From a virus (Duplodnaviria; Heunggongvirae; Uroviricota; Caudoviricetes): DNA of 64,000 bases. Both the position numbers and the translations under genes were made by a program. Shown here piece after piece: positions 4,712-36,524 of the stretch (position 1 is its first letter; each line of letters starts with the position of its first letter). The stretch is taken from IMG/VR virus record IMGVR_UViG_3300010885_072628; one strand, given 5' to 3'. The notes under the pieces are model-generated. The model was not told the origin of the DNA. It did not search any database and worked only from the letters and a program-made list of their open reading frames with translations.

Positions 4712-5755
4712 TTATCTCACAAGAAGATTAGCTAAAGTTGATTTTGGAGTACCTAATCCAGTACATCCATCCCATCCGTTTTTTGCTGTGAATGTCCCGT
4801 TGTTTCCAGATGTTATGTCGTGGAAATTAGACTGTGCAATACTGTAAAGTTTTGGATTAACAAATCCTAGATTTCTTCCTAGTATTTGATTGCATCTGGC
4901 AATATAAGCCGCCCATATCGGAGATGATGCACTTGTTCCTCCAAAAACATATAATCCGCCATCAACTATCACTCTAATACCAGTTGCTGGATCAGCTACA
5001 GCAGCAACGTCAGGCACACCTCTTTTTGTCCCTGTTGGGATTGCAGTTCTTTGCCAAGTTGGAATATTAAATAAAGAGCTATTCCCGCCTCCGGTTGCTC
5101 CGTAAGAGTTGTGCCAAACAGTTTCGTTTAGCCAAACTGTGTTTTTTACAGATAAGTTTGTTCCTCCACAAGCTAAAACATATGGGCTACTTGCGGGGAA
5201 GTCCACATTGTTTCCACGCAACCCATCAGAGCTTCCAGAGTCACCAGAGGCAGCAGTCACTGTTATTCCTGCTGTTGCAGCATTCTGGAATGCTGCGTTC
5301 ATTCCTGCGATCCCAGCGGAAGACCATTGACTTTCAGGAGCCCCCCAACTTATGCTAATTACGCTCACCCTATCGGTCACTGCTTTATTAATTGCATTAA
5401 TGAATCCTTGTTCCGTATTTGGAGCCATATAAACACTAGGTGTGCAACCATTTGCTATTCCAATTGCTATACAAAGATCCAACATAACCTCCCCATCAGC
5501 AGATGAAGCTATTGTTGGTCGATTTGTAGCTCCATCTACAGATACGAACTGTACAGTTGGAGAATTTAATCCTAAACTTGCGAAATAATAATTCAAATCT
5601 GATTGTCTATATCCTCCACCCAACTCTATAACGGCAATCTTTTGACCAGCTCCTGTGCTGTTTGGAAATCCGTAAATTTGAGCGATTTGATTGGGATAAA
5701 ACGAAGTCCCTACCGCTCTGCTATTTACAAAACGATGCAAATAATTCTTGAACAT
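4712..5755 (-). CDS. S53 (sedolisin/kumamolisin) family serine peptidase, catalytic domain only. No pro-domain or signal peptide.
   Basis: GGTSASSP catalytic-Ser motif, SGDSGS, and an N-terminal PNQIAQIYGF...GAGQKIAVIELGG typical of the mature sedolisin domain. AGGAGG RBS upstream. Confidence 0.7.
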   Translation of the reverse strand: MFKNYLHRFVNSRAVGTSFYPNQIAQIYGFPNSTGAGQKIAVIELGGGYRQSDLNYYFASLGLNSPTVQFVSVDGATNRPTIASSADGEVMLDLCIAIGIANGCTPSVYMAPNTEQGFINAINKAVTDRVSVISISWGAPESQWSSAGIAGMNAAFQNAATAGITVTAASGDSGSSDGLRGNNVDFPASSPYVLACGGTNLSVKNTVWLNETVWHNSYGATGGGNSSLFNIPTWQRTAIPTGTKRGVPDVAAVADPATGIRVIVDGGLYVFGGTSASSPIWAAYIARCNQILGRNLGFVNPKLYSIAQSNFHDITSGNNGTFTAKNGWDGCTGLGTPKSTLANLLVR

Positions 5756-8603: not shown

Positions 8604-9569
8604 ATGGATATCAAACCACGGGTTTTGACCCCTGAAGAAAAAATTCTTGTAAAAGAAAGATTGCTTCAAGTCTCCCAAATTATCGAAAAGTGGACAAAGG
8701 AATATCCACAATTTTCAACAAAAGAGATAAAGTCGTTTTTTCTCAACAAGACTTTCCCTTTTCCAAAGAACTCAGACCTGCTTATCGACCAAAAAGTGTT
8801 TGAAAACTTCAGAGAAGAAAATCATCCGCATTTTGAAACAACTTTAGAAATGGTTGTTCTAGAGTCTTTTGCTCCAATCTGTTATAATATGTCTAAAAGT
8901 TGGTCCCGCCGAATATCCTCAGAATCTGATATCTCTCCTAGTGCCATTTTTCACGATGTGTTGCAAGATGCATTCATGTCTGTGTTGAATTCCATGTATT
9001 ATTACACAGATTCGAATTATAGTTTTTCGACTATAATTATTGAATCTTTAAAAAGACATATGGATAGAATGTACAGATACAATTATTGCAAAACCTCCCC
9101 TCGTTCTTTGGAAGATCACAAAACAGTTATTCAATACAACATATCGAAGATCAAAGAACCACATGTGACCTTTGATCAGATAGTTAAATCTATGGGTATT
9201 AGCGAAGATCAAACATCGAGACTTTGCGATGTTATTCGTTTTGTTTGTAGAGAGTCTAATGCTGATAGTAATAATTCTTTGAATCTGGGCAACATCATTG
9301 ATACTTCTTCTTCCCAACAAGAAGAGGTTGATTTCGTAGATTGTGTTTCTGTATTCAAGAAGGGACTAAGTTCTGCAGAACTTTCTTTGTTGGAATTGAC
9401 CTCGGAAGAAATTGAAATTTTTAAGATAGGAATTGATTGTGGATTCAGACGAGGATGGCAGTCTGATTGTGCAAAGGACAAATCTCTAAGCAGACAAAGA
9501 ATAGGACAGATCTATATTTCTGCTGTTGCCAAACTCAAGCCCTTGCTTATGAAGACGTTTTATGCCTAA
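8604..9569 (+). CDS. divergent sigma-70-like factor (candidate second phage sigma)
   Basis: YSFSTIIIESLKRHMDR resembles sigma r2.3/2.4 (FSTYA.WWIR). C-terminal LSRQRIGQIYISAVAKLK resembles a region-4 HTH (TRERIRQIE.KAL.KLR). Confidence 0.35.
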   Translation: MDIKPRVLTPEEKILVKERLLQVSQIIEKWTKEYPQFSTKEIKSFFLNKTFPFPKNSDLLIDQKVFENFREENHPHFETTLEMVVLESFAPICYNMSKSWSRRISSESDISPSAIFHDVLQDAFMSVLNSMYYYTDSNYSFSTIIIESLKRHMDRMYRYNYCKTSPRSLEDHKTVIQYNISKIKEPHVTFDQIVKSMGISEDQTSRLCDVIRFVCRESNADSNNSLNLGNIIDTSSSQQEEVDFVDCVSVFKKGLSSAELSLLELTSEEIEIFKIGIDCGFRRGWQSDCAKDKSLSRQRIGQIYISAVAKLKPLLMKTFYA

Positions 9570-10800: not shown

Positions 10801-11101
10801 ATTCATACATTTTATTTCGTTGTCTTTATTTGTTTTATTTTTAGCTATATTTCTTTTAGTTGTAAATGATTTTCAAGGATTTTTTATTTTTATTACATTC
10901 TTCTTATCATTCGCAATATGTACAGCAGTATCTTATAGAAGAGAAAAAAATGAAAAAAAGAAACAAGAGAAAATAAAACTTTTCAATTCTATATCTATTC
11001 CCAATATCACTACTACAAAAATTGGGAATTCTATGATCACCACATTAAGAGTTCCATCACCAGAGCTTTTCGAAGAGGTTAAAAAGCAAGCTTTTGATTG
11101 A
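10790..11101 (+). CDS. small membrane protein
   Basis: Two hydrophobic helices (FISLSLFVLFLAIFLLVV; FFIFITFFLSFAICTAV). Confidence 0.3.
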   Translation: MNLKFIHFISLSLFVLFLAIFLLVVNDFQGFFIFITFFLSFAICTAVSYRREKNEKKKQEKIKLFNSISIPNITTTKIGNSMITTLRVPSPELFEEVKKQAFD

Positions 11102-11135
11102 ATTTGTAAATTTCATATACAACAATATATATGAT

Positions 11136-11552
11136 ATGTATAAATTCACATTTTTATTGTTTATTTGTTTGCTTCCAATTTTAGGATGTAATCAAAAAAC
11201 AACTGGTTCTTTTGAACAAGAACTTCTACAACTTCACAATCAAGAAAGAGCCAAAAATCCTTTGATTTTAGATGCTCATCTTAGTGAATATGCCCAAAAT
11301 CACGCTGATTGGATGGCAAAAAGAGATAGATTAAGACATTCTAGCATGTCTGATCTTATCGAAGGCTACAGCCTAGTTGCAGAAAATATAGCTTTTGGGC
11401 AAGAAACTCCACAAGATGTAATGAATGCTTGGATGACTTCTAGTGGACATAGATCTAATATATTGAATAAAAACCTTTCCAATGTTGGTTTTGGCGTAAG
11501 CTATGATAGTAATAATGCACCATATTGGTGTGTATGTTTTGGTAAAAAATAA
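11136..11552 (+). CDS. CAP/SCP (PR-1-like) domain lipoprotein
   Basis: Lipobox LLPILGC after a signal peptide. CAP motifs HNQER...HADWMA...GENIAFG...GHRSNIL...YWCVCFG. ATG at 11136 (the track ORF starts at an upstream TTG). Confidence 0.65.
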   Translation: MYKFTFLLFICLLPILGCNQKTTGSFEQELLQLHNQERAKNPLILDAHLSEYAQNHADWMAKRDRLRHSSMSDLIEGYSLVAENIAFGQETPQDVMNAWMTSSGHRSNILNKNLSNVGFGVSYDSNNAPYWCVCFGKK

Positions 11553-11561
11553 TGGAGAAAA

Positions 11562-12626
11562 ATGCCTGATATAAAGATTAGCGAATTAACGCCCGGAGCA
11601 GCTTATGCAAACAGCTATGTTCCTGCTAGTGACGAAGCAGGAACAACAACTAGTAGGGTCAGTCTATTATCTATCGCACAATTAGCTCCATATTTAAAAG
11701 GAATAGGCGATTATAGTATAGTCGGAGGAAATTCTAATACTTCTAGTGGTAATTATTCTTCTATTTTAGGTGGTCAAAATAATAATGACGGCGGGTATAG
11801 CAATGTTTTTATTCTTGGTTCGAATATTACAGCAACATTGGCAAATTACACCTATATTAATAATTTAAAAATTGCATCTGATGGCGTCATTAGATTCGGA
11901 GACGGATCAGTACAAAATACAGCAGGCGGTGGCGGGCCATTCTCTTTTGGATCAGGAATATCCAGTTCAAATCCTAGTTCGAATAATTATGCATCTGGTA
12001 ACTACAGTGCTGTATTGGGTGGTTATGATAATTATGCAAAAAATGATTACTCTGTTGCTAGCGGCAAGCAATCTGTAGCTCGTCTTTATGGAGAACAATC
12101 CCACGCAGCAGGTAGCTTTTCTGTTGTTGGAGATGCACAAAAAAGTTCTTTTGTTTTAAGAGCTGTCACTACTGATGCGGCAACAACACAGCTATCGTTA
12201 AGTGGTGGTTCTGCGTATATCACAATGCCAGAAAACTCTGTCTGGACATTTACCGCTCGTATTAGTGCAATTAGAACTAGTGGTGGCATTCAAGATGCAG
12301 GGGCAGGATTTATTATACAGGGAGCTATAAGAAGCGATAATAGTTCAACGTACATCATAGGAAGCACAATAACAGAAAATTGGTCTGATCCTGAATTGGC
12401 TTCAACAACAGCGATTGTGTCTAATTTTAATAATTTATTTTACGTCACAGTCAAAGGATTAGTTGCCTATGAAATTAGATGGGTTTGCAATTTAGATGTA
12501 TGTCAAGTCAGCTACTTAAACCCAACCCCTACTCCAACCCCTACTCCAACCCCTACTCCAACCCCTACTCCAACCCCTACTCCAACTCCAACCCCAACCC
12601 CTACTCCAACCCCTACTCCAACTTAG
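11562..12626 (+). CDS. tail fibre / collar fibre protein with a C-terminal (TPTP)n linker
   Basis: N-terminal MPDIKISELTP...LLSIAQLAPY typical of phage fibre N-termini. Gly/Ser/Asn-rich beta-helix-like repeats. 50-aa PTPT tract at the C-terminus. Confidence 0.5.
   Translation: MPDIKISELTPGAAYANSYVPASDEAGTTTSRVSLLSIAQLAPYLKGIGDYSIVGGNSNTSSGNYSSILGGQNNNDGGYSNVFILGSNITATLANYTYINNLKIASDGVIRFGDGSVQNTAGGGGPFSFGSGISSSNPSSNNYASGNYSAVLGGYDNYAKNDYSVASGKQSVARLYGEQSHAAGSFSVVGDAQKSSFVLRAVTTDAATTQLSLSGGSAYITMPENSVWTFTARISAIRTSGGIQDAGAGFIIQGAIRSDNSSTYIIGSTITENWSDPELASTTAIVSNFNNLFYVTVKGLVAYEIRWVCNLDVCQVSYLNPTPTPTPTPTPTPTPTPTPTPTPTPTPTPTPTPT
12521..12623 (+). repeat. tandem 12-bp repeat (ccaacccctact)n encoding (PT)n
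   Basis: About 8.5 units read directly. Confidence 0.8.
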
Positions 12627-13258
12627 CTGTAGAGATTGTATTTGAAATGAAATACTCCTATATGGGATATCTCTTTGCTTAGGTTATTGTCACAGACTAT
12701 TTCGTAGTTTTTTGCTCTAGCATTTTGACAAAAATAAATATCCTCTCCTATTTCTAACTTTTTATTTTTATCATAATCTATAATGTAATAAGGGGAGCCA
12801 ACATCTTCGTACACCTTTCTACTAACAAGCAAACAACCATGCCCCATAATATCAACTAATTCTGTTGGCGGACTATCATCATTTAGCTCTACACAAACCC
12901 CCTCATCTATAACGCTTTTTTCTTTACTAGCAGCACGATGAGATGTGAAAATTGGGTTTGGGAATCTTCTTTTTCTATAATTACACCCTATAATAGGAAC
13001 TTTATGTTCTAAAAGTCTAACACAAGCATCAGCGGGAAACTTCATATCAGAATCAACCCACCAAATATATTCATAATCAGTACTTAAAAAGTATTCTACT
13101 AATTCTCGTCTATTTTTTGCTAGATAAGAGCTTATATTAAAAGCTACATTCACAGTATGCTCAGCAGCCACTAAATTAGCGGTAGCCATACTCAAACTTT
13201 GACAAAATTCAGCAGCAACTTGTTCTGTTGATGGGACGCATATTAGGATTTTACTCAT
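12623..13258 (-). CDS. putative glycosyltransferase
   Basis: Nucleotide-sugar transferase-like IWWVDSDMKF DxD-type motif. Confidence 0.35.
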   Translation of the reverse strand: MSKILICVPSTEQVAAEFCQSLSMATANLVAAEHTVNVAFNISSYLAKNRRELVEYFLSTDYEYIWWVDSDMKFPADACVRLLEHKVPIIGCNYRKRRFPNPIFTSHRAASKEKSVIDEGVCVELNDDSPPTELVDIMGHGCLLVSRKVYEDVGSPYYIIDYDKNKKLEIGEDIYFCQNARAKNYEIVCDNNLSKEISHIGVFHFKYNLYS

Positions 13259-13266
13259 ATAATAAA

Positions 13267-13974
13267 TTAGTAATTATTTTTTAATTCAATTACATCAGAA
13301 AAATTATACAAAAATTTACAATTTGTGAATTTTTTATTTGGATTAAATATCTTATTTGATAAGTTTTTATTCATTTTTTGTTTGTTTTTATCATTCATTT
13401 CTTTCCAACTTAGATCTGAATTCATATTTTTTATAGTTTCTTCTTTTGAGTTTAATATAGGAAGTAATTCACAATCTATATGAGAAAATTTATATCCTAA
13501 TAATTCGCATCTTTTCACGAAATCTGTGTCGTGGCATCCAGCAGGTAAAAAGGATTCATCGTAACCTCCAACTTCTTTAAAAACATCTTTTGAACAGCCT
13601 ATTCTTCCGTATACTCCTTTTCTGAATATATTGCACCAAATACCATCGGGATTATATTTTTTTATATTTTCTATAGAATTTGATACGAAGTTGTCAACAT
13701 CTAGATTGAAAAAATAATCTCCAGAACTTAATCTAGCAGCGAAATTTTTAGCTATTGGAATAGAATATTCGTTATAATCCAATGTTTGGTAATAATGTAT
13801 TCTTTCTAATTTAATGTTATTCATCATAAAATCAGACATTCCATCATCTGATCCGCAATCGACAATAATCCATTCGATATTTTTATTTTGATTTATTTGC
13901 AAAAAATTGTGTTCAAATGTTTGTTTGAATTGAAAAAATCTGTTCTTAATTTGAGAGCAATAGGATATTTTCAT
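13267..13974 (-). CDS. glycosyltransferase family 2
   Basis: WIIVDCGSDDGMSDF (GT2 hhhhDDgStD) and FNLDVDNF. Confidence 0.5.
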   Translation of the reverse strand: MKISYCSQIKNRFFQFKQTFEHNFLQINQNKNIEWIIVDCGSDDGMSDFMMNNIKLERIHYYQTLDYNEYSIPIAKNFAARLSSGDYFFNLDVDNFVSNSIENIKKYNPDGIWCNIFRKGVYGRIGCSKDVFKEVGGYDESFLPAGCHDTDFVKRCELLGYKFSHIDCELLPILNSKEETIKNMNSDLSWKEMNDKNKQKMNKNLSNKIFNPNKKFTNCKFLYNFSDVIELKNNY

Positions 13975-13978
13975 TTTT

Positions 13979-14905
13979 TCAAGTGAAGTATAAAACTACT
14001 CCTCCTGGTTTTCCATCGGTTGCCCCTGCGTAAGTTCCTTCCCCCCCACTTCCAGTAGTTGTCTCATCCATAGTACTGCCACTCAAAAATACAGCAGCAT
14101 TTCTGCCTTGAAAATCAACTGTTGCAGCAGGAGTGCCTGTGCAAGAGGCTCCTGTCCAATTAGATTTGTAAAAAGTGCGGTTACAATTGCCATTAAGACC
14201 GATAGATAGCAGGGGAGCGTTTGTGGGATTTTTCCATGATATCCCTGCTCCACCAGTAATTGTAATTCCAGAATATGTAACGCTACTAATCGTTCCATCA
14301 GTGCTATGAGGTGGGGGAAATCGTACTCCCGCAATCCCTTTAGATCCAACAGTATAAGATACAGTGTTTCCGCCGGTAACGGTATACTCTCTTACCGCTT
14401 CGCCTCCATTATTTCCGTTGCCGTATTGACCGCATGACTCGTTTTCTGTACCACCTGCTTCTCCACCTCCACCTCCACCTATGACCCATGCCTTCATCTT
14501 TGTGGCTCCCGTGGGCACAGTATATGTGCTTGTGACTGGAGTTTTGAACACAACTGCAAATGGCGTGTAAGGAGTAGCTGTTGGAGTAGCTGTTGGAGTA
14601 GCTGTTGGAGTAGCTGTTGGTGTAGCTGTTGGTACAGTAGTTGGTGTAGCTGTTGGTACAGGAGTTGGTGTAGCTGTTGGTACAGGAGTTGGTGTAGCTG
14701 TTGGTACAGGAGTTGGTGTAGCTGTTGGAGTAGCTGTTGGAGTAGCTGTTGGAGTAGCTGTTGGAGTAGCTGTTGGAGTAGCTGTTGGAGTAGCTGTTGG
14801 AGTAGCTGTTGGATCGTATAAAGATGAATTTAATATCAAAAAAGAGTCTCCATTATGTACTACTTTAAAATCATTTGATATTTTTGATATTTTAAAATTA
14901 GGCAT
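13979..14905 (-). CDS. structural (fibre-like) protein with an (ATPT/PVPT)n linker and a Gly-rich C-terminal domain
   Basis: About 22 TATP/TPVP repeats, then [26 protein letters not shown]. Confidence 0.45.
14571..14814 (-). repeat. tandem 12-bp repeat (gtagctgttgga)n, antisense of the (TATP)n coding sequence
   Basis: About 20 units with gtacaggagttggt variants. Confidence 0.8.
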
Positions 14906-15020
14906 AATATCGACTCTTTTACAACGAATAGTTTTTAATATCTATAGTTGCGGCATGGATTATTAATAGCAAATTACTAGATATTGTTGTCAAACAATAA
15001 TCTAGATTTAGGAACAGAAA

Positions 15021-18000
15021 ATGTCAAACGAACTTAATGTTGGCGAAAATTCATTAAAATCAAACAATATAGTTGAGTTTACTGGTAATATAGCATCTAC
15101 CAATACAACAACTGGCACTTTAGTGGTCACCGGTGGCGTTGGACTAAGTGGAAACCTCACATCTAATAGCATCGTAGTATCCGGATCTATCAATGCAACA
15201 TCTACTGGCACAGGAGCAATTGTAATATCAAATGGTGGAATAGGAGTTAGTGGTAGCCTTTATGCTGATAAAGGAGTTTTAACAGGAAGCGTAGATTCAA
15301 CATCCACAACAACAGGAACCCTTGTGGTCTCAGGAGGAATTGGAGCAAATAATATTTTTGTCGGTCAGTCTGATTCTGGGAACATCAGAATAACTTCTAA
15401 TACAATCAGCTCTACAAACACAGATGGAGATATAAACTTAACTCCTGATGGTCTAGGCAAAGCAAAAATAAACAATGAAGAAATAGCAGTTAAGTCTTAT
15501 GTGGACTCGGTAGCCATAGGTTTAAATTTTCATCCATCATGTGCAGTTGCAACAACAGATGCTATAGCAGCCGTGTATTACAACGGACCAAGCAACGATG
15601 GTGTTTTGGCCACTTTAACTTTAGGGCCGCCTTTAACAACTCTAGACAATTATTCATTACAAAACAATGACCGTATTATGGTCAAAAACCAAGCAACTTC
15701 AGCACATAATGGGATATACACATGGGCAACAGGCGGAACCGTACTCACTAGATCTTACGATGCAAATACTGTATCTTTTTTGCATGGAGGAGATTATGTT
15801 TTTATTGAAAAAGGAGATTTGTACGGTAAAACTGCTTGGATACAAACTAACAATGTTACTATCATGGGCGTCTCTGATATACTATGGAGACAATTCTCTG
15901 GAGCTGGAACGTATACTGCCTTAAATGGTTTATCTTTAGATGGCAACGCTTTTAGTGCTAATCTCAAATCAAATGGCGGCGTAACAATTGAGTCTGGTAA
16001 ATTAGCTGTTAATTTAAGTGCTTCTAATATCACCGGAACTTTAAATGTTGCTGATGGAGGAACAGGAGCTACATCTTTAACTGGATATGTAAAAGGGCAT
16101 GGAAGCGGAGCATTTACAGCAAGCTCCACAATACCTGCCACAGATATATCAGGAAGCATAAACAACGTAGCAGTAGGTTTTTCAGGGCCTGATACTGGTA
16201 GTTTCACAACACTTTCGGCTAATTCCAATGTGATTTTTAGTGCAAATCTAGCATCCGTTGGCACTCAAAGTGGCACCTTAGTGGTGACAGGCGGTGTAGG
16301 AGTTAGCGGAACAATCAACGCTGCAACGGCCACATTCAACAACCCTCTGGGTGTTTCTAGCGGCGGCACAGGAGCTTCATCTTTAACGGGTTATATCATT
16401 GGCAACGGAACTGGTGCAATGACCGCTACTGCATCGCTAATAGGCGGATATATAACTGGAAATATAGACAATGTGCCAATAGGAGTTAACGTTAGAGCGG
16501 CTGGTAATTTTACAAGAATATCTGCTAATGCAAATGTTTTGTCTACAAACACATCCACTGGCACATTGATTGTAACAGGAGACATAAGAAACAACGGGAC
16601 AATATACGCCACCAGTGCAATTTTATCAAATGCTTTAGGTGCTACCAGTGGAGGCACTGGAGTAAGCTCTTATGCAATAGGCGATATTTTATATTCTTCT
16701 TCACTTAACACATTATCTAAACTTTCTGGGAACACTACAAGCACTAAAAAGTTTCTAACACAGACAGGAACAGGTTCTGCTAGTGCTGCTCCAAGTTGGG
16801 CAACAATATCGGCATCAGATATCAGCGGATTAGCTGGAGCGATTGACTCTGGTATTCCCGAATTCTCTCCTGGCAATGGTATATCTTTAAATTATACTAC
16901 ATCTACAAATATATTGTTAATTACAAATACAATAGGGGCTCCAAATAGTGTGGCGATCACAGGCGGATCAATAAATGGAACCACTATAGGTGCATCCACT
17001 AGATCAACAGGTGCTTTCACAACCATAACAGCAAATGCGGGTACCTCTTCAACAAGCACTGGGACCGGAACTTTGGTTGTAACAGGAGGTGTGGGAATTA
17101 GTGGAGCATTGTATGCCAATAGTGGTAACTTTAGCAACCCAGTTACTGTTTCTAATGGTGGAACAGGGGCTTCGACCTTGACAGGATATGTCAAAGGAAG
17201 TGGAACCAGTGTTATGACAGCTAGTCCTACAGTCCCTGTGGCCGATATAACAGGGTTCGGCACCAGCTTAACAAATGGAAGCGGAATTATATTTTCTTAC
17301 AATACAGGAACAGACACCCTTTCTATATTAAATGATTTAGGGCCTAAAAGTGCCGTGACAATCACGGGCGGATCTATAACTGGAACAACTATTTCTGGAT
17401 CTACAGGTTCTTTTACTACTTTGGCTGCTAGTGGAGTAGTAACATTAACATCTACTGCAACTTCAACTAACACTACAACAGGAGCATTAGTTGTAACTGG
17501 TGGCGTTGGAATTGCAGGAGCCGTGAATATAGGTGGAGTCACAACATTAACATCTACTGCAACTTCCACTAACACTACAACAGGATCTATAGTTGTTAGT
17601 GGTGGCGTCGGAATTGCAGGAGCCGCAAATATAGGCGGAATAACAAAGGTAACATCTACTGCAACTTCAACCAACACTACAACGGGAGCATTAGTTGTAA
17701 CTGGTGGCGTTGGAATTGGCGAAAACTTAAATGTTAGTGGAATAACGAAAATAACATCCACAGCGACTTCGACTAGCACCGCAACAGGAGCTATAGTTGT
17801 TAGTGGTGGATTGGGAGTAGGAGGAGCAATATATGCAGGCTCTATCAATACAAGTTCTATAACTAGTTCTGTAACTATGAGTGCTGGAATAACCTCAACC
17901 AGCACTGCAACTGGCACTTTGATTGTAACAGGCGGCGTGGGAGTCAGTGGTTCTATTTATACATCTTCAATTAAGCTGAGTGGAGCAACAAGCGGAACAA

Positions 18001-18878
18001 TCAGTTTGGCAGCACCAAGCACGGTTAGTTCTGTGAATTACACGCTCCCAGCAGATGGAACTTCTGGTCAATATTTAAAGACAAATGGAAGTGGTGTTTT
18101 ATCTTGGGGGACTGTGTCGTCTGGTTATGACGGATCTAATGTAGCAATTTCTGGCGGTTCTATAAACGGAACAACCATAGGCTCTTCGACAAGAGCAACG
18201 GGAAGTTTCACCACTTTAAGTGCAAATGGCCAAGCAACTTTTAGTTCTGGTGCGAGTTCTACATCCACCACAACAGGAGCGTTAGTTGTTAGTGGTGGAG
18301 TAGGAATTAGTGGAAAATTATATGTAGGAGATGTCTCCTCTTCTATATCGACTACAACAGGAGCATTAATTGTTAGTGGTGGTATTGGAGTAGGAGGAAA
18401 CATACACGGTACAACTGCTACATTAGCATCCAATACAGTTTCCACATCAACAACAACAGGAGCTTTAATAGTAGGAGGCGGAGTTGGAGTTGTTGGTGAT
18501 ATGAATATAGGAGGAGCAGTAAAAGTAGGTGGGTATCCCGCTTTTATGTGCAGAGCTTGGATCAATTTTAACAGTAAGAGCTCTCAGATTTTCGCAAGTG
18601 CGAATATAAGCAGTATTACAAAAAATGGAACAGGAGATTTCACGATTAATTTTACAAACGCTATGCCTGATATATATTATTGTATGTCTGGAAATGGCGG
18701 TGGCGGCATTGGACCCTTCGATAGCCCAGTTATTGGACAGGCCATATTGCCTACAACCACTAGTACAAGGATTTATATATCTAGTCCAAGTTCCAATATC
18801 GCTGCTTATTATGTCGGTGGTTCGGGGTTTAATTCTGGAACTGATTATGGAATTATAAGCTTGGCATTTTTTAGATAG
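15021..18878 (+). CDS. giant tail-fibre protein (1285 aa) with many iterated TTGTLVVTGGVG(I/V)SG and SNGGTGASTLTGYVKGSG repeats
   Basis: Highly repetitive Gly/Thr/Ser-rich beta-structure repeats. Distinct C-terminal domain, a possible receptor-binding region. Confidence 0.6.
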   Translation: MSNELNVGENSLKSNNIVEFTGNIASTNTTTGTLVVTGGVGLSGNLTSNSIVVSGSINATSTGTGAIVISNGGIGVSGSLYADKGVLTGSVDSTSTTTGTLVVSGGIGANNIFVGQSDSGNIRITSNTISSTNTDGDINLTPDGLGKAKINNEEIAVKSYVDSVAIGLNFHPSCAVATTDAIAAVYYNGPSNDGVLATLTLGPPLTTLDNYSLQNNDRIMVKNQATSAHNGIYTWATGGTVLTRSYDANTVSFLHGGDYVFIEKGDLYGKTAWIQTNNVTIMGVSDILWRQFSGAGTYTALNGLSLDGNAFSANLKSNGGVTIESGKLAVNLSASNITGTLNVADGGTGATSLTGYVKGHGSGAFTASSTIPATDISGSINNVAVGFSGPDTGSFTTLSANSNVIFSANLASVGTQSGTLVVTGGVGVSGTINAATATFNNPLGVSSGGTGASSLTGYIIGNGTGAMTATASLIGGYITGNIDNVPIGVNVRAAGNFTRISANANVLSTNTSTGTLIVTGDIRNNGTIYATSAILSNALGATSGGTGVSSYAIGDILYSSSLNTLSKLSGNTTSTKKFLTQTGTGSASAAPSWATISASDISGLAGAIDSGIPEFSPGNGISLNYTTSTNILLITNTIGAPNSVAITGGSINGTTIGASTRSTGAFTTITANAGTSSTSTGTGTLVVTGGVGISGALYANSGNFSNPVTVSNGGTGASTLTGYVKGSGTSVMTASPTVPVADITGFGTSLTNGSGIIFSYNTGTDTLSILNDLGPKSAVTITGGSITGTTISGSTGSFTTLAASGVVTLTSTATSTNTTTGALVVTGGVGIAGAVNIGGVTTLTSTATSTNTTTGSIVVSGGVGIAGAANIGGITKVTSTATSTNTTTGALVVTGGVGIGENLNVSGITKITSTATSTSTATGAIVVSGGLGVGGAIYAGSINTSSITSSVTMSAGITSTSTATGTLIVTGGVGVSGSIYTSSIKLSGATSGTISLAAPSTVSSVNYTLPADGTSGQYLKTNGSGVLSWGTVSSGYDGSNVAISGGSINGTTIGSSTRATGSFTTLSANGQATFSSGASSTSTTTGALVVSGGVGISGKLYVGDVSSSISTTTGALIVSGGIGVGGNIHGTTATLASNTVSTSTTTGALIVGGGVGVVGDMNIGGAVKVGGYPAFMCRAWINFNSKSSQIFASANISSITKNGTGDFTINFTNAMPDIYYCMSGNGGGGIGPFDSPVIGQAILPTTTSTRIYISSPSSNIAAYYVGGSGFNSGTDYGIISLAFFR

Positions 18879-18882
18879 AAAG

Positions 18883-19137
18883 GTGAAAATGAGAATAATT
18901 TATCTAAATGGCGAGGGCGTTTCTTTAATTACGCCTTCTTTAAATTGTGGTTTAAACATAAGAAATATAGCGGAAAAAGACACACCAGTAGGTCTGCCAT
19001 ATTTTTTCGTTGATGAAAAAGATATTCCAACAGACAAACATGTTAAATCTGCTTGGCGTGTAGATTTTGCTCGTCCTGATGGATTTGGAATCGGTGCAGA
19101 TGCTTGGCTTGAAAAACAAAAACAAAAGATCAAGTGA
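18883..19137 (+). CDS. hypothetical protein (possible fibre chaperone/assembly partner)
   Basis: 84-aa ORF immediately after the fibre gene with a 4-nt gap. Confidence 0.3.
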   Translation: MKMRIIYLNGEGVSLITPSLNCGLNIRNIAEKDTPVGLPYFFVDEKDIPTDKHVKSAWRVDFARPDGFGIGADAWLEKQKQKIK

Positions 19138-19304
19138 AATATCTAGTCTTTTTTTGATTCTTCCCAAGATTCTAATTTGCGTTTAGTGAAAAATGATGCA
19201 CATGCATAAATTACTCCACCGATAGCAGATTGAATTATCCATGCAAACAAAGAAATTGATACCAATGTGGTTACAATAAAATTTTTTTTCATAACATATA
19301 TATC

Positions 19305-19658
19305 TTGATGAACTTCAAAAAATGGATATTAGAGCAACCCAACACTTCTCATATAGGAGAAGTTGCTGTTTTTTATGTTCCTTCAGAAAAATTAACAAAA
19401 ACTATTAGAAGTAAAATGCATAATTTTTTTGTACAAAATTATGACGCTTATACTCACGAAACAAGTAAAATACAAGGTTATTGGACAAAAAACAATAAAA
19501 TACTTAAAGATAAGCACGAAAGATATGAGGTTTCTTTTAGTGGAGAAGACAATTTAAAGAAATTTATAAGTTTTTTGTCTAATATTTGTGAAGATGTAAA
19601 AGAAGATTGTATATATTTGTCTGTTGGAAATGATTCATATTTGATCAACCCTAAATGA
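19305..19658 (+). CDS. hypothetical protein
   Basis: 117-aa ORF. Confidence 0.3.
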   Translation: MMNFKKWILEQPNTSHIGEVAVFYVPSEKLTKTIRSKMHNFFVQNYDAYTHETSKIQGYWTKNNKILKDKHERYEVSFSGEDNLKKFISFLSNICEDVKEDCIYLSVGNDSYLINPK

Positions 19659-19683
19659 TTCTCACTTCGAGATAAGTAGAAAT

Positions 19684-20523
19684 TCAATTAAGAACTTTTG
19701 TTTTTTGTAAAGGCACAGGCTTTGCTTTTTTAATTATTTCATCAAAGCTTTCTTCTACTTGTTTTAATGTCCTGTCGTATTGTGTGCCATATCCATTTGC
19801 ACGATTAAACTCTGTTTGTTTTTCTTGTCTCATTTTGTGACGGGCTAAACAAAACTTCTTTGATAGATTTCTATAGTGTAATAGTTTTAATAGATTGTTT
19901 TTAGAAAACAAAGCTGGCCCAGTCGGTTCGCACCAGTGACACCCCGCAGTAAAATTTATTTCTACTTCGCTAGATTTAAAGATACATGGCTTAGATACTG
20001 CTTTGCTTGGAATTCCAAGATTGTTTTGCATGTATATCTGCCCCAGTTTTATATTAGGCAGCTTAGTAGAAACCATTTCATAACCATTAGGAACGAGAAT
20101 TGTTGCGTCTTGTCTTTCTGCATTTGTTATTAATAGCTTTAGATTTGGATGATAAACAAATTCATCCATATCTACAACTATAGACCAGTCATCACCTTGG
20201 CTTTTCCAACAATTGTTTTTCAAGTTTGTGAATATATCATCTCTTATCCCATCAGAATTATACTCTCTTAATATAGCTCCGCTTTTTTCGATTATTTCTC
20301 GAGAATTGTCTGTTGAATTGTTATCGTAAATTACAATTCTATTTGTTATTGTGCTATAATGCTTAATGAAAAATGGTAATAAAATTTCTTCATTATAACA
20401 AAAAGAATAAACAGATATATTCAAAATAGTTTCCTTTCTTAATTCAATTGAGTAGCTAATGATTAATTTACTTGGAAAGATGACAAGAACATTAGATAAA
20501 AAGTCTGATTTGTTAATTGGCAT
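19684..20523 (-). CDS. glycosyltransferase (GT2-like/GT92-like)
   Basis: ISVYSFCYNEEILLPFFIKHY...IVIYDNNSTDNS. The 5' end overlaps the divergent 20459 gene, so the true start is uncertain. Confidence 0.5.
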   Translation of the reverse strand: MPINKSDFLSNVLVIFPSKLIISYSIELRKETILNISVYSFCYNEEILLPFFIKHYSTITNRIVIYDNNSTDNSREIIEKSGAILREYNSDGIRDDIFTNLKNNCWKSQGDDWSIVVDMDEFVYHPNLKLLITNAERQDATILVPNGYEMVSTKLPNIKLGQIYMQNNLGIPSKAVSKPCIFKSSEVEINFTAGCHWCEPTGPALFSKNNLLKLLHYRNLSKKFCLARHKMRQEKQTEFNRANGYGTQYDRTLKQVEESFDEIIKKAKPVPLQKTKVLN

Positions 20524-21331
20524 ACCTTATTTCAATAGGTATGATTTGTTGGAGAAAAACATTTCTTCTTTAAAAAACAAAGGCGACATAATGATCATAA
20601 ACAACTCAATTAACAATCAATCGAATTATGATGCTTTAAGATTTTTGTCGAATATTGCCATCGTTGATCAGACTATGAATATTGGTGTTTCGGCTTCTTG
20701 GAATCTAATATTGAAGTATGCCATAAAGTACAAATACAAGCATGTTCTCATCACCTCTACAGATGTAGAGCATAAAGAGGGAAATATAGAGCTTGCTCTA
20801 GAAGATTTTGAACGCAGTAAAGATTGTTTTTTGGGGCATATCGAAGATTATAATTCTTTTTATATTGATCCAAAAATTGTCGATATAGTTGGATGGTTTG
20901 ATGAAAACTATTACCCAGCATATTGTGAAGACACAGACTACACTTATAGAATCTACTTGGCGGGCCTTTATAAAAAACCTCTTATTGTCGGGGAAAACCC
21001 ACCTATACATTTAAGGTCTCAAACCGTTTTAAGTGATAAGAGCCTTTTTCCTAAATTTCAATATACATACGATTACAATAAAATTTATTTCAAAAAGAAA
21101 TGGGGCGTTTGGGACTTTAATATGATTGAGTCTTGCGGTAATTCATTGCACCTTTTGTTCAAGGAAAAAATAAAAGATTTTGGTGCTTATATTCATCCTT
21201 TTAATGATTTAGGAAAAGATCATAAATACTGGAGCGAACCCGAAGATTTGCATTTAAGGGATTGGGACAAAATCGAGGTAATCAAAAATATCGAATCAAT
21301 ATCGTATAAAGTTTTTTCTAAGCATATATAG
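20459..21331 (+). CDS. beta-1,4-galactosyltransferase-like glycosyltransferase. Paralog of 2614..3384.
   Basis: WFDENYYPAYCEDTDYTYRIY motif. Confidence 0.45.
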   Translation: MINLLGKMTRTLDKKSDLLIGIPYFNRYDLLEKNISSLKNKGDIMIINNSINNQSNYDALRFLSNIAIVDQTMNIGVSASWNLILKYAIKYKYKHVLITSTDVEHKEGNIELALEDFERSKDCFLGHIEDYNSFYIDPKIVDIVGWFDENYYPAYCEDTDYTYRIYLAGLYKKPLIVGENPPIHLRSQTVLSDKSLFPKFQYTYDYNKIYFKKKWGVWDFNMIESCGNSLHLLFKEKIKDFGAYIHPFNDLGKDHKYWSEPEDLHLRDWDKIEVIKNIESISYKVFSKHI

Positions 21332-21345
21332 TTGAAAGGAAAAAA

Positions 21346-21597
21346 ATGAAAACATTTATAGAATTCTGCAAAGACAGTAAAAAAGAGTTGCCAATACTAG
21401 AAAAGACAACTCGCTCGGGAATCATGAATTGGGCATATCCAGATGGATATATACGAAGCCATTATTCCGCTGGTTATTTTATGCCAATCGCTGCCGACGC
21501 TCTACAGAAGATGGGTGTGAAAGCTGACGAAGATGAGGTAGATCACGGCCAAATGACATACAAACATCATGAAAGAATCATCAAACAAGAAAAATAA
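21346..21597 (+). CDS. hypothetical protein
   Basis: 83-aa ORF with AAGGAAAAAAATG RBS context. Confidence 0.3.
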   Translation: MKTFIEFCKDSKKELPILEKTTRSGIMNWAYPDGYIRSHYSAGYFMPIAADALQKMGVKADEDEVDHGQMTYKHHERIIKQEK

Positions 21598-22312
21598 AAT
21601 AGCTTTAGTTTGCATAGCTAAAAACGAAGATAATTATATTAAAGAATGGATTGATTATCATAAAAAAATAGGGTTTGATGATATTTATGTTTATCAAAAT
21701 GACTGGCGATGCAGAATTGATGATTCTAATTTATTTAAAATAGAATTTGATGGTAAAGGTAAGCAAATTGAAAGTTATAATCATTTTTTAAAAAATCACG
21801 GTAAAAAATACGACTGGGCGGGATTTTTCGACATTGATGAGTTTTTAGTTTTAAAAAAACACAACGACGTTAAAGAATTTGTATCTGATTATGCAAAATA
21901 TAACGGAGTTGGAATTAATTGGGTTTTATTTGGAGATAATAACCAAAACCCCCCAGAAAAAGATTTTAGTCTTTTAAAGAGATTCACCATGAGGCAAACA
22001 AAGCCTAATCTATGGGTAAAATCTATAATCAAAATAACAAAAAACGTTTCTATGCTTGTGCATCATCCGAATTTGCCTATAGTCAACACAAATGGGAATG
22101 AATGTATTGGCAACTATAATGAAGAGCTATTGGACGATATAGCACAAATAAATCATTATTTTTGTAAAACCAAAGAAGAGTTTTTAGAGAAATGCTCAAG
22201 AGGAAGAGCAGATTCAATCACTCTTAAAAGAAAAACAAATGAATTTCCAAAACACAACTTCAACGAAATCGAAGATTTCACAGCTTTAAATTTTTTTCAC
22301 CACTCTATATAA
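21569..22312 (+). CDS. glycosyltransferase family 92-like
   Basis: KIALVCIAKNEDNYIKEWIDYHKKIGFDDIYVYQND matches the GT92 A.KNE..Y..EW.EYH...G...hYhYDN signature. Confidence 0.5.
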   Translation: MKESSNKKNKIALVCIAKNEDNYIKEWIDYHKKIGFDDIYVYQNDWRCRIDDSNLFKIEFDGKGKQIESYNHFLKNHGKKYDWAGFFDIDEFLVLKKHNDVKEFVSDYAKYNGVGINWVLFGDNNQNPPEKDFSLLKRFTMRQTKPNLWVKSIIKITKNVSMLVHHPNLPIVNTNGNECIGNYNEELLDDIAQINHYFCKTKEEFLEKCSRGRADSITLKRKTNEFPKHNFNEIEDFTALNFFHHSI

Positions 22313-22334
22313 CCTGTCACACAAGGATAATTTT

Positions 22335-22724
22335 ATGATTTCATTGCAAGAATACAAGGGCTCAAAAAGCGTTAAAAACTTAGTTCAAAAAATGTTTGAA
22401 GCTAGACAGGTAGCTCACAATGTTCATTTTCAAACAAAGAGTTACAGCCTCCATAAAGCTTTAAATTCTTTTTATGATGATATTTTAGATCTAGCTGATA
22501 CATTTGTAGAAACACATCAAGGACAATATGGCATTTTGTCTGGTCACGAGAAAATAGATGTGTCAGCTATTACAGACAGTGAAATAGAATCTTATCTGAA
22601 AGATTGTGCAGAGATATTTTCTTTAGGTAGAGATTCGTTAAAAGACTCTCATCTAAAAAACATAATGGATGAGGTAGTGGCTCTAACCTATAGAACTTTG
22701 TACAAAGTTAGATTTTTGAAGTGA
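22335..22724 (+). CDS. hypothetical protein
   Basis: 129-aa ORF. Confidence 0.35.
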   Translation: MISLQEYKGSKSVKNLVQKMFEARQVAHNVHFQTKSYSLHKALNSFYDDILDLADTFVETHQGQYGILSGHEKIDVSAITDSEIESYLKDCAEIFSLGRDSLKDSHLKNIMDEVVALTYRTLYKVRFLK

Positions 22725-22727
22725 AAA

Positions 22728-22910
22728 CTATTTCTTGCTTTTTACATAATCAAAAATAGTTTTTATAGTGTTGTTCAAATTTTCTATAGCACTTATTTTT
22801 TCTTTGTTATCTTCTTCGAACCAATAAAATCCTTCTTTAGTGGCTTTAATCTTTATGTTGAATTTTTTCGCCCAAGACCGAATATGACCGATTTTATATG
22901 TTTGCATCAA
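22728..22910 (-). CDS. hypothetical small protein
   Basis: 60-aa ORF. Confidence 0.25.
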   Translation of the reverse strand: MMQTYKIGHIRSWAKKFNIKIKATKEGFYWFEEDNKEKISAIENLNNTIKTIFDYVKSKK

Positions 22911-22962
22911 ATCACCTTTTGGCTAATTTTTCTTTACCATCTAAGTATATCAGATTTTGTTT

Positions 22963-23145
22963 TTAACGCAATGGCGAGTTGAACTTCATCGTTTTTACTT
23001 TAGATTTTCGAGGTTTACATCCCAAATTACTTAAAGATCCCCATATTTGAAAATCAGGGTTATTTCTGTCTTTGCAAGAAACGATAGCTCCTGTTCCTGC
23101 CATTTCATTGAACCATTTTTTAAAGCTTATTTTTTGCGAAGACAT
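22963..23145 (-). CDS. hypothetical small protein
   Basis: 60-aa ORF. Confidence 0.25.
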   Translation of the reverse strand: MSSQKISFKKWFNEMAGTGAIVSCKDRNNPDFQIWGSLSNLGCKPRKSKVKTMKFNSPLR

Positions 23146-23206
23146 AAATTTTGAACCTTCTTAATTAATACCATATATATCTATGAGTTATTAACAAGGA
23201 GTTGAA

Positions 23207-23410
23207 ATGGATATTTTTACAAATATTTGGTTGTGGGCTATAGTATTCGTCCTATCAGGCGGGTATATTCTATATATGAGGAAAAAATCACAAGAAACAG
23301 TACAAGCACAATTTCTTGTTACTGGTTTGTTGTTGATTATTTTTTATGTTGTCTGTTTTTTTTCTGGAGTTTGCACTATATTGAGTTTTATCAAAAACTG
23401 GTTTTTCTAA
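23207..23410 (+). CDS. small membrane protein (2 TM)
   Basis: AAGGAG RBS. Hydrophobic helices. Confidence 0.35.
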   Translation: MDIFTNIWLWAIVFVLSGGYILYMRKKSQETVQAQFLVTGLLLIIFYVVCFFSGVCTILSFIKNWFF

Positions 23411-23413
23411 AAA

Positions 23414-24499
23414 ATGTATGATTATCTAATAGTAGGTGCCGGAATATACGGAAGTGTCTTTGCAGAAAGAATGAAAAGCAAAGGCAAATCTGTGCTAATA
23501 ATAGACAAAAGACCGCATGTAGCAGGTAACTGCTACACAGAGGAAGTCGATGGAATTCAAGTACATCGATACGGTTGTCATATATTTAATACCGGCAAAA
23601 AAAATGTTTGGGAATATGTCAACAAGTTCGCTTCGTTCAATAATTACCGACATACAGGAAAAGTGAATTTCGAAGGAAAGGTTTATAGCTTCCCTATAAA
23701 CTTATTGACTCTTCATCAAATCTGGGGCGTAAGTACACCAGAAGAGGCAGAAAACAAATTAAAAGAAGTTAGGATTGATATCAAAAATCCTAAAAACATG
23801 GAAGATTGGTGCTTGTCTCAGATAGGCGAGCAATTATACGAAACCTTCATAAAAGGTTATTCAACAAAACAATGGGGAACTACGCCTGATAATCTGCCAG
23901 CATCTATTGTTCAGCGAATTCCTATTCGACTAACGTATAATGATGATTATTACGAAAACGCCACTTATCAAGGAATTCCATTAGGTGGTTATACCAAAAT
24001 GATTTCCAACATTTTAGATGGAATAAAAGTAGATCTTAGTGTTGATTTTTTTGATATAAAAGAAAAATGGAAACAGTATGCGAAAAAATTGGTTTATTGC
24101 GGTCCAATAGATCGATTTTTTGATTATGAGTTTGGCGAACTAGAATACAGAAGTCTTAAATGGGAAAATAAAGTTTTAACAGGAGATTATCAAGGATGTA
24201 GTGTTGTAAATTATACCGATATGGACAATAAGTTCACAAGAGTTATAGAACACAAGCACTTTGAATTTAAAAATCAAGAAAAAACAGTAGTGAGCTGGGA
24301 GTACTCTGTGCCATGGAAAGAGACTCAAGATCCATATTATCCAATAACTAATGAAAAAAATAAAGAAAGATGCCTAAAGTACAAAAAAATAGCAGAACAA
24401 CAAAAGGATGTTCTTATTTCTGGACGTTTAGGCAAATTTCTTTACCTCGATATGGACGACACAATTGCTTTAGCTCTTAAAGAGTCAAATGAGTTTTAG
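23414..24499 (+). CDS. glf: UDP-galactopyranose mutase
   Basis: Near full-length collinearity with Glf: MYDYLIVGAGIYGSVFAE...VLIIDKRPHVAGNCYTE...IPLGGYTKMI...YRSLKWE...RVIEHKHFEF. Confidence 0.85.
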   Translation: MYDYLIVGAGIYGSVFAERMKSKGKSVLIIDKRPHVAGNCYTEEVDGIQVHRYGCHIFNTGKKNVWEYVNKFASFNNYRHTGKVNFEGKVYSFPINLLTLHQIWGVSTPEEAENKLKEVRIDIKNPKNMEDWCLSQIGEQLYETFIKGYSTKQWGTTPDNLPASIVQRIPIRLTYNDDYYENATYQGIPLGGYTKMISNILDGIKVDLSVDFFDIKEKWKQYAKKLVYCGPIDRFFDYEFGELEYRSLKWENKVLTGDYQGCSVVNYTDMDNKFTRVIEHKHFEFKNQEKTVVSWEYSVPWKETQDPYYPITNEKNKERCLKYKKIAEQQKDVLISGRLGKFLYLDMDDTIALALKESNEF

Positions 24500-26312: not shown

Positions 26313-26453
26313 ATTCAAAATTTGAATTTAAAAATCTTGTGTGTGGAGGCTCGACAGTGCTTGACAAGCCTGCGAAGGGGGCTAAAATAAGATTGGTGGC
26401 ACTGCCGCCCCTCTATACATGGACGGGGACTTTTTCGATTTTAAGGGCAAACA

Positions 26454-34091: not shown

Positions 34092-34102
34092 GGAATAACA
34101 AA

Positions 34103-35569: not shown

Positions 35570-35570
35570 T

Positions 35571-35900
35571 ATGTTTAGTCACCTGTATGAATGGTATCTT
35601 GATTCCCGCTTAATGACTAAATTTAGAATATGCAAGTTTGTTGACGGCAACGGAAAAGAGTGGTATCAAATCCAGCAAAAAGGTTGGATATTTTGGTACA
35701 ACATTTATTCTTATGATTGGTTAGGGGCTACGGGATGGCCACACAAATTAGACAGCGTAGATGAAGCAAAATCTTGTATTGAAAAAATGCAAAAAAAGAT
35801 AAACAGTGATGTTGTAAAAAAAATAGAATGTTTATCTTATTGTTGTAATTGTGGCGAAATCTACTCAAAATTTACCCATATACGATGCAATCATGAATGA
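35571..35900 (+). CDS. hypothetical Cys-containing protein
   Basis: 109-aa ORF. Confidence 0.3.
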   Translation: MFSHLYEWYLDSRLMTKFRICKFVDGNGKEWYQIQQKGWIFWYNIYSYDWLGATGWPHKLDSVDEAKSCIEKMQKKINSDVVKKIECLSYCCNCGEIYSKFTHIRCNHE

Positions 35901-36517: not shown

Positions 36518-36524
36518 AAATAAA

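Follow-up and report, generated by a model that had tools for sequence, protein, structure and literature searches.

In giant viruses, virus-made glycans on the particle surface are familiar from the capsid glycans of chlorovirus PBCV-1 and the fibril glycosylation gene clusters of Mimivirus. Cells offer a parallel in serine-rich-repeat adhesin and flagellin loci (GtfA/B with accessory GT-A enzymes; GmaR), where the gene for a serine/threonine (S/T)-rich adhesin or filament is clustered with cytoplasmic glycosyltransferases (GTs) that modify the protein before export or assembly. Among tailed phages, GTs encoded by mycobacteriophages Che8, Corndog, and Myrna glycosylate capsid and tail-tube subunits at C-terminal extensions, as shown by mass spectrometry (Freeman et al. 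2023, Cell Host Microbe, as relayed in PMC12619734 and PMC11256854). Large aquatic phages can be rich in GTs: cyanomyovirus S-SCSM2R has 13 (PMC12801897) and "moraphages" have four core GT orthogroups (PMC12619734). For RL38J1 and other Pootjesviridae, a 2026 study reports galactose as the base-proximal sugar on 5-hydroxycytosine in virion DNA and proposes that the phage mutase makes UDP-galactofuranose (UDP-Galf) (PMC13326640). GT-rich large aquatic phages, phage UDP-galactopyranose mutase genes (glf), and virion glycosylation by mycobacteriophage GTs are already known. Here, we describe a 64,000-nucleotide (nt) stretch of IMG/VR virus record IMGVR_UViG_3300010885_072628 (the window), in which positions 11,562 to 24,499 form what we regard as a plastic island for host recognition in the genome of a large, AT-rich tailed phage from freshwater, with three fiber-type virion genes, five soluble GT-A enzymes, and glf. 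New here are a fiber-GT-GT operon and a conserved pairing of a GT2-family gene with a glycine-rich fiber gene; we found neither described in phages of this kind.

Genes are named by their first coordinate in the window. The open reading frames (ORFs) of an earlier, sequence-only reading of this DNA lie where that reading placed them, and those that carry the argument are as follows (aa, amino acids):

11562 to 12626, plus strand: fiber/adhesin-like protein, 354 aa, with YadA-head-like G/S/N repeats, a conserved C-terminal domain, and a (PT)17 tail
12623 to 13258, minus strand: Mnn9/Anp1 (GT62)-like, STIV A197-like GT-A enzyme (phrog_1574 at 5e-20; family profile)
13267 to 13974, minus strand: GT2-family glycosyltransferase, GT-A (PF10111, 37.7 bits, and PF00535, 26.5 bits, both above cut-off; Glyco_tranf_2_2/GT2)
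13979 to 14905, minus strand: small fiber-type protein, 308 aa, with a 31-aa N-terminal peptide, an 81-aa TATP/TPVP linker, and a C-terminal Gly_rich_2 domain
15021 to 18878, plus strand: long tail-fiber-like protein, 1285 aa (phrog_11355 "tail fiber protein" at 8e-9; S/T/G-rich 34-aa repeats)

On the minus strand, 13979 is followed by the GT2 gene 13267 and then by the GT gene 12623, with gaps of 4 nt and 8 nt. Given this tight layout, the Thr-rich fiber-type protein is predicted to be transcriptionally coupled to two GTs. The operon diverges from the long fiber gene 15021 across a 115-nt intergenic region, and at its other end 12623 converges on 11562, the two stop codons overlapping by 4 nt.

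Beyond the window, we examined the neighborhoods of related genes. Many freshwater contigs, viral and metagenomic, carry orthologs of 13267 (56-63% identity), and a Gly_rich_2 protein lies within 10 kb of the ortholog in 11 of the 12 informative loci, that is, those with enough flanking sequence. Among roughly 30 loci of distant GT2 relatives (≤50% identity), none had a Gly-rich neighbor. The reverse query of IMG/VR with the Gly-rich domain found the GT2 gene in six of nine close loci. The usual layout in relatives is the GT2 gene, an alginate-lyase-like gene, and a convergent Gly-rich gene; a 12623-type GT is also present in four of these loci (L049, L050, L052, and L053). Of the genes between 3 and 25 kb in the window, the pairing loci have the GT2 and Gly-rich genes, once also the long fiber, and nothing else. 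Because so little else is common to them and the window, the pair appears to have been kept together through extensive rearrangement.

The three fiber-type genes differ in how well their identity is supported and in where threonine and proline accumulate. The linker of 13979 spans residues 32-112 (81 aa, 37 of them Thr). Its C-terminal domain scores 22.6 bits against PF21722 (Gly_rich_2), below the cut-off of 24.3. The AF2 model is of moderate confidence (pLDDT 62.7); Foldseek places it near the cyanophage Pam3 fiber (E = 8e-4) and the Bxb1 tail tip (E = 5e-3), and comparison with BFVD returned mycobacteriophage minor tail proteins and glycine-rich proteins (E = 1e-6 to 1e-8), TM-scores being 0.35-0.6. 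From this model it is reasonably supported that 13979 carries a glycine-rich virion fiber domain, as in the Pam3 fiber and the Bxb1 tail tip. The assignment of 15021 as a tail fiber is likewise reasonably supported by its residues 135-385, which are 33-38% identical to annotated tail fibers of Limnohabitans, Pelagibacter, and Methylophilales phages. The protein contains a motif, T[ST]TG..VV.GG.G, that occurs seven times along its length, and a 102-nt (34-aa) tandem repeat is present in 3.6 copies, 80% identical, at 17444-17809. Fiber identity is weaker for 11562, which had no match in cultured phages, matches phrog_5449 ("virion structural protein") weakly, and has distant homologs with Mtd_N or YadA-head Pfam domains. 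Directly 5' of 11562, a CAP/SCP-domain protein (11094-11552) has an N-terminal hydrophobic stretch ending in a lipobox-like "LPILGC" and may be a secreted lipoprotein.

Long Thr/Pro linkers had been claimed for all three fiber genes, which holds for 11562 and 13979; 15021 contains 1.9% Pro, has 30% S+T in its 34-aa repeats, and lacks a Thr/Pro linker. Both Thr/Pro tracts are encoded by 12-nt tandem repeats. In 11562, the (PT)17 tract (aa 321-354) ends the ORF, and the homologs P0006 and P0007 (36-47% identity) stop at "...QVSYGAP/GTP" with no such tail. Because these homologs end directly after the conserved C-terminal domain, (PT)17 appears to be an appended tail joining nothing, for which a spacer role offers no explanation. 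Homologs of the Gly-rich protein place a T/P-rich linker at the same position with very variable length: 0 aa (L054, L057, P0003, and P0004), about 15-30 aa (L061, L064, L065, and P0005), and 81 aa in 13979. As a control, we examined 69 ORFs within 6 kb of TP-linker proteins on 14 other viral contigs, and no GT family was among the 25 families listed. By themselves, TP linkers are therefore no evidence for glycosylation, and the GT density of the window is not a generic companion of TP linkers.

To identify GTs, we used Pfam models at gathering scores, plus comparisons with PHROG, PDB, and NCBIfam. The GT2 assignment of 13267 holds above cut-off. Its D92xD94 (DXD) motif is invariant across 43 sequences, and the AF2 model (pLDDT 93.7) matches many GT-A structures in Foldseek with probability 1.00. 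Polysaccharide synthases, peptide GalNAc-transferases, and the teichoic-acid GTs TarS and TarP score about equally well as its structural neighbors (TM-score 0.55-0.65), and the family profile gives a weak match to the flagellin O-GlcNAc transferase GmaR. The second operon enzyme, 12623, had been proposed as a further GT and was confirmed only through family-profile work, its own score against Pfam Anp1 (PF03452) being 18.4 bits with a cut-off of 28.8. The family comprises 5120 cluster representatives. A 62-sequence profile matches STIV A197 (PDB 2c0n, 2.6e-7) and Mnn9 (3zf8, 7e-6), 44 of the 62 members match Pfam Anp1 (best 6e-11), and the GT-A signature is conserved (D71, E172, D173, and H199 invariant; D69 at ≥90%). 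On the strength of the profile matches, the Anp1 matches of family members, and the DXD...ED...H signature, we accept 12623 as a predicted GT-A enzyme. The A197 match ties 12623 to a viral GT; the capsid protein of STIV is glycosylated.

None of the eight GT-like proteins of the window has a transmembrane-like segment (no hydrophobic 19-mer above KD 1.6). The GTs are therefore expected to act in the cytoplasm with nucleotide sugars, where virions assemble. No scanned window ORF matched a GtrA or GT-C Pfam model, and no serotype-converting gtrABC cluster was found. Fold comparison, single-sequence PDB searches, and NCBIfam gave no acceptor-specific or equivalog-level assignment for any GT, and no window GT matched a known galactofuranosyltransferase model.

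The reading we tentatively favor, at somewhat less than even confidence, is cytoplasmic O-glycosylation of the phage's own fiber proteins by at least the two operon GTs. Gene identities, the operon, the GT2/Gly-rich pairing, and the soluble character of the GTs are observed; from these we infer the acceptor, sugars, timing, and biological benefit. Late in infection, cytoplasmic GTs would use UDP-sugars or other nucleoside diphosphate sugars to O-glycosylate the fibers before assembly. The favored acceptors would be the Thr residues of the 13979 TATP linker and those of the (PT)17 C-terminal tail of 11562. The outcome would be a mucin-like coat, which could make the linkers stiffer and shield them, or else mask receptor binding or tune it. 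Three further island GTs (19684, 20459, and 21569) may extend the glycan and, as the least supported step, Glf may supply UDP-Galf to one neighboring GT.

The remaining GT-like genes, glf, and two sigma-factor-like genes of the window are as follows:

23 to 694 and 8604 to 9569: sigma-factor-like paralogs (phrog_351; one with a faint "late sigma factor" match)
2614 to 3384, plus strand: GT2-family glycosyltransferase outside the island (PF00535)
19684 to 20523, minus strand: GT2-family (Glyco_tranf_2_4) glycosyltransferase (PF13704 at 2e-12; phrog_13126)
20459 to 21331, plus strand: GT2-family glycosyltransferase (PF00535; phrog_29879 "galactosyl transferase" at 2e-20)
21569 to 22312, plus strand: GT92-like glycosyltransferase (PF01697 at 1.9e-12, 47.8 bits with a cut-off of 23; PF13704 at 3e-14)
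23414 to 24499, plus strand: glf, UDP-galactopyranose mutase (Glf/UGM; PF03275 at 1e-71, PF13450, TIGR00031)
56771 to 57559, plus strand: GT17-like glycosyltransferase outside the island (PF04724 at 4.8e-34, 118.4 bits with a cut-off of 26)
62186 to 62914, plus strand: possible GT2-like protein (weak; PF00535, 21.4 bits with a cut-off of 23.3; DAD motif)

At least nine GTs of four to five families had been counted. Our count is eight GT-like genes, seven of them credible: six exceed Pfam cut-offs, 12623 was recovered by profile work, and 62186, which the sequence-only reading placed at 62198 as a GT, has its weak GT2 score with no PHROG, PDB, or NCBIfam support. The families number about four (GT2, GT92, GT17, and Mnn9/A197-like), all of them small soluble GT-A proteins. 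Five lie in the island (12623, 13267, 19684, 20459, and 21569) and three outside it (2614, 56771, and 62186); 20 additional window ORFs yielded no further GT. The placement of the GT2-family gene 19684 among the fiber genes, like that of 13267, is borne out by its Pfam match, and the GT92-like and GT17-like labels of 21569 and 56771 likewise exceed gathering scores. The lone PDB sequence match of 19684 is again the flagellin O-GlcNAc transferase GmaR, weakly (6e-4). Genes 20459 and 2614 are indeed paralogs (30% identity, E = 1e-14). Support for their designation as β4GalT-like is limited to the PHROG label: only PF00535 was found in them, with no Glyco_transf_7N/7C (GT7, β-1,4-galactosyltransferase) match in either, and the sole Glyco_transf_7C match falls on 13267 (21.6 bits, below the cut-off of 23). 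The 32 IMG/VR homologs of 21569 (37-64% identity) sit on contigs of up to 310 kb with no synteny in common. The mechanical calls make the 5' ends of 19684 and 20459, which are divergent, overlap by 65 nt (20459-20523), so that the two genes have a very short intergenic region in common or none; at least one start probably lies further downstream, for example at Met8 of 20459. A subtilase (S8) gene (4712-5755, minus strand) lies near 2614, and locus L056 carries a Peptidase_S8 gene (15144-16751) 5 kb from its 13267 homolog. Between the GT92-like gene and glf is a DUF5856/phrog_858 gene (22335-22724) resembling a "starvation-inducible transcriptional regulator".

The presence of glf in the island was confirmed. 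Glf scores 363.8 bits against the TIGR00031 equivalog (cut-off 303.75), and over its full length it is about 50% identical to two mutases of solved structure, 1i8t and 4mo2 (residues 1-357 aligned, E = 1e-112). The protein has a GLF domain and an N-terminal FAD/NAD Rossmann domain, with the motifs GAGIYG, RIPxR, YQGIPxGGYT, EHKHF, and PYYP conserved. By homology, it is a bona fide UDP-galactopyranose mutase predicted to interconvert UDP-Galp and UDP-Galf. Its phage homologs are ≤52% identical, and glf is annotated in about 90 phage records. The gene converges on the SSB gene and abuts the replication genes for SSB, RNase H, and clamp loader. In a 181-kb marine viral contig (locus L101, 8911-11640), a GT2 gene overlaps the start of glf, which is followed by a 2-oxoglutarate (2OG)-Fe(II) oxygenase gene, the set lying between ribonucleotide reductase and family-B DNA polymerase genes; this set may serve DNA modification or some other auxiliary role. 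An ORF of 67 aa (23207-23410) that ends 3 nt 5' of glf has two hydrophobic stretches and no family match; it may encode a small membrane partner or be spurious.

Three other explanations bear on the same genes. Galactofuranose is common in bacterial surface glycans, and the GTs and Glf could act on host surface polysaccharide precursors (O-antigen, capsule, or exopolysaccharide) at the cytoplasmic face and so alter the surface of the infected cell, for example to block superinfection or progeny adsorption to debris, with fiber adjacency reflecting a common receptor-related variable region. This fits the relatives of 13267, which in five loci (L049, L050, L052, L053, and L054; e.g., L052 10001-11823) overlap their stop codon with the start of an alginate-lyase-domain (PF05426) gene, a coupling absent from the window, amid genes for RgpF, WbsX, sugar epimerase/dehydratase, GlmS, and sulfotransferase. 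It also fits the best structural and profile matches of 13267, among which are heparosan synthase, K4CP, TarS, and TarP, the last a prophage enzyme acting on wall teichoic acid, and it is the reading given for the 13 GTs of S-SCSM2R (PMC12801897). However, the window holds no flippase, polymerase, GtrA/GtrB-like membrane protein, or GT-C enzyme, its GTs lack transmembrane segments, no integrase or lysogeny gene appeared among the ORFs scanned, and names in the source records, "involved in cell wall biosynthesis" for one, were assigned automatically. Host-envelope remodeling would also leave the tight operon with a fiber-type protein and the recurrent pairing unexplained, and we consider it unlikely. 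Less likely still is a gathering of genes with no common function, in which a recombination hotspot collected fiber genes and GT "morons" independently and the Thr/Pro tracts are flexible, protease-resistant spacers. The GT92-like, GT17-like, and glf homologs do occur in many unrelated viral contigs with no synteny in common, of the roughly eight minus-strand genes in the window, five fall in the island, phage fiber proteins commonly have TP linkers with no GT nearby, and linker length varies freely among homologs; GT-rich variable regions are known in large aquatic phages (PMC12619734, PMC12801897). What chance would hardly produce is the operon together with the repeated pairing of the GT2 and Gly-rich genes (with the 12623-type GT) in genomes that have little else in common, and a (PT)17 tail that links nothing is no spacer.

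The remaining alternative is DNA hypermodification, in which Glf and adjacent GT-A enzymes (19684, 20459, 21569, and possibly others) would glycosylate a modified base such as galactosyl-5-hydroxy(methyl)cytosine to evade restriction, the fiber genes being unrelated neighbors. The one published functional link of a phage Glf concerns DNA and comes from the Pootjesviridae, among them Rhizobium phage RL38J1 (PMC13326640); that family is also found among our glf matches. Phage GT-A-fold DNA GTs exist, with TarP and JGT as structural neighbors (bioRxiv 10.1101/2023.12.21.572611), and TarP also matches 13267; the replication genes abutting glf and the L101 arrangement point the same way. Nevertheless, within the 64-kb window, to which this negative applies and not to the remaining genome, no ThyA-like hydroxymethylase or 5hodCMP synthase, TET/5mYOX, C5-methyltransferase, dCTPase, or dNMP kinase was found among ORFs of ≥200 aa (Pfam; 23-694 by PHROG only) or among 20 smaller ORFs, and such pathways are usually clustered (bioRxiv 10.1101/2023.12.21.572611). 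No window GT matches Pfam TAGT, and the DNA GTs of Pootjesviridae and of the RB69 type are GT-B, whereas all window GTs are GT-A. This explanation too would leave the fiber-GT-GT operon unaccounted for, and we regard it as improbable.

Glycosylation of the phage's own fibers is suggested by the tight operon, the recurrent pairing, the virion fiber domain of 13979, the appended (PT)17 tail, the soluble GTs, the STIV A197 and GmaR matches, and the TP-linker control. Several observations weigh against it. In most relatives, the predicted translational coupling of the GT2 gene to an alginate-lyase-like gene points towards polysaccharide biology. Three of the nine close Gly-rich loci lack the GT2 gene. 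The pairing loci are interrelated, with 3-15 ORFs in common among themselves, and at least one contig, that of 187,644 bp behind three of our loci (L064, L109, and L120), falls into one broad lineage with the window; the pairing counts are therefore not independent events. Since the pairing holds in L054, L057, P0003, and P0004, which have no TP linker, the linker is not needed for it, and this apparent independence of the GT2/Gly-rich association weakens the case for the linker as acceptor. The acceptor of 13267 is also not deducible from its fold because the matches are generic to GT-A enzymes. In homologous contigs, glf and the three GTs beside it show no conserved link to fibers; the galactofuranose component is the weakest of the proposal, with no specific support, and may belong to a different pathway. 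That the fibers are glycoproteins is itself a prediction from genes alone. The central claim of the sequence-only reading, that phage GTs decorate the virion fibers with a galactofuranose-containing glycan, thus gains indirect support from the operon, pairing, tail, soluble enzymes, and control for the decoration itself; the galactofuranose part did not carry over. Its further statement that such decoration is known only from giant viruses and some actinobacteriophages is too strong where gene content is concerned, as large aquatic phages with 4-13 GTs are already described (PMC12619734, PMC12801897).

Regarding the source of the DNA, the window most likely belongs to an uncultured large freshwater phage, as judged from homology. 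Searches of 50,697 phage records (megablast and blastn) returned no relative, and IMG/VR queries with the clamp loader and the fiber N-terminus returned no close one; a metagenome scan found homologs of single window genes, 58-89% identical, on freshwater contigs 135-202 kb long, and the right-edge gene had relatives at 58-83% identity in contigs of the same size range. The window is AT-rich (30-43% GC) and densely coding, with genes on the plus strand nearly throughout, and its tailed-phage features comprise a bacterial-type SSB, T4-type RNase H, a clamp-loader AAA+ protein, an HNH endonuclease, a tRNA-Gln, and two sigma-like factors. The sole result of a genome scan with Glf, a 48% match to Gordonibacter, is uninformative as to host. 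A giant-virus origin, raised by the GT92 and GT17 families and the Gly-rich matches, was ruled out by the bacterial-type SSB, sigma-like factors, T4-type RNase H and clamp loader, dense gene packing, and TTG/GTG starts. Scans of the window for sigma-70 promoters and terminators stayed at chance level, the T4 late-promoter motif TATAAATA occurred once with 6.5 occurrences expected, k-mer enrichment across 42 upstream regions gave no motif, and an Rfam scan found the tRNA alone. A G+C-rich 141-nt intergenic stretch (26313-26453) 5' of the RNase H gene holds a near-consensus TTGACA...TAAAAT promoter-like site and possible hairpins, with no Rfam match. Further on, genes for a phosphoribosyl pyrophosphate (PRPP)-synthetase-like protein (33267-34091), a nicotinamide phosphoribosyltransferase (34103-35569), and a NADAR-domain protein (36444-37016) form an NAD+ salvage set (33267-37016) that looks like a phage NAD-reconstitution/anti-defense module.

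If phage enzymes glycosylate fibers, then host range, adsorption kinetics, protease resistance, and recognition by grazers or immune systems depend on a layer invisible to sequence-based receptor-binding prediction. The operon offers a directly testable minimal system of one 308-aa substrate and two small GTs. A broader proposal, which we put forward as speculative and rather doubtful, is that a mobile "self-glycosylating fiber" cassette (a Gly-rich distal fiber protein, a GT2, and a Mnn9/A197-like GT) circulates in large freshwater phages of Gram-negative hosts and coats the Thr/Pro tracts of receptor-binding fibers with a mucin-like O-glycan that may contain galactofuranose. If true, phage-encoded virion glycosylation would be seen for the first time beyond the actinobacteriophages, and for the first time on the apparatus of host recognition. 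The locus also counsels caution, as phage GT-plus-glf clusters are now assigned on context alone to DNA hypermodification, host-surface remodeling, or virion glycosylation, and this one has features of all three.

Giant viruses resemble the locus in decorating virion surface fibrils with GT-A enzymes of eukaryote-like families (GT92-like, GT17-like) and nucleotide-sugar enzymes, and Mimivirid collagen-repeat fibril proteins have a Gly-rich fold in common with 13979. They differ in that the window is that of a tailed phage: it encodes a tRNA, sigma-like factors, an SSB of bacterial type, and a T4-type RNase H and clamp loader, and contains no sugar-activating pathway beyond glf. With the adhesin and flagellin loci, the island has in common the clustering of genes for S/T-rich low-complexity tracts with several cytoplasmic GTs, along with its weak GmaR matches; those loci are cellular rather than viral, and the window has no homolog of the GT-B enzymes GtfA/B. 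Pootjesviridae likewise combine a phage Glf with several GTs, and here glf adjoins replication genes; they possess a ThyA-like 5hodCMP synthase, a nucleotide kinase, and GT-B-fold GTs, whereas the window has none of these and its GTs are GT-A (PMC13326640). As in large aquatic phages, many small GTs of several families occur in one genome together with NAD-salvage and other auxiliary genes, and the "outer capsid protein" of S-SCSM1 has a Gly-rich fold in common with 13979. The GTs of those phages, however, are read as host cell-wall or DNA modifiers, and the available text of the two reports (PMC12801897, PMC12619734) mentions no fiber-GT operon or GT2/Gly-rich pairing. In the mycobacteriophages, as relayed in the sources cited above, the acceptors are capsid and tail-tube proteins and the hosts are Actinobacteria, whereas the candidate acceptors here are fibers of an AT-rich freshwater phage known from genes alone. 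Other features are common to both. The window holds phage-encoded soluble GTs (eight GT-like genes) for which cytoplasmic modification before assembly is predicted, the low-complexity C-terminal extensions that serve as acceptors in mycobacteriophages have a counterpart in the (PT)17 tail of 11562, and the Gly-rich distal domain of 13979 is common to mycobacteriophage minor tail proteins.

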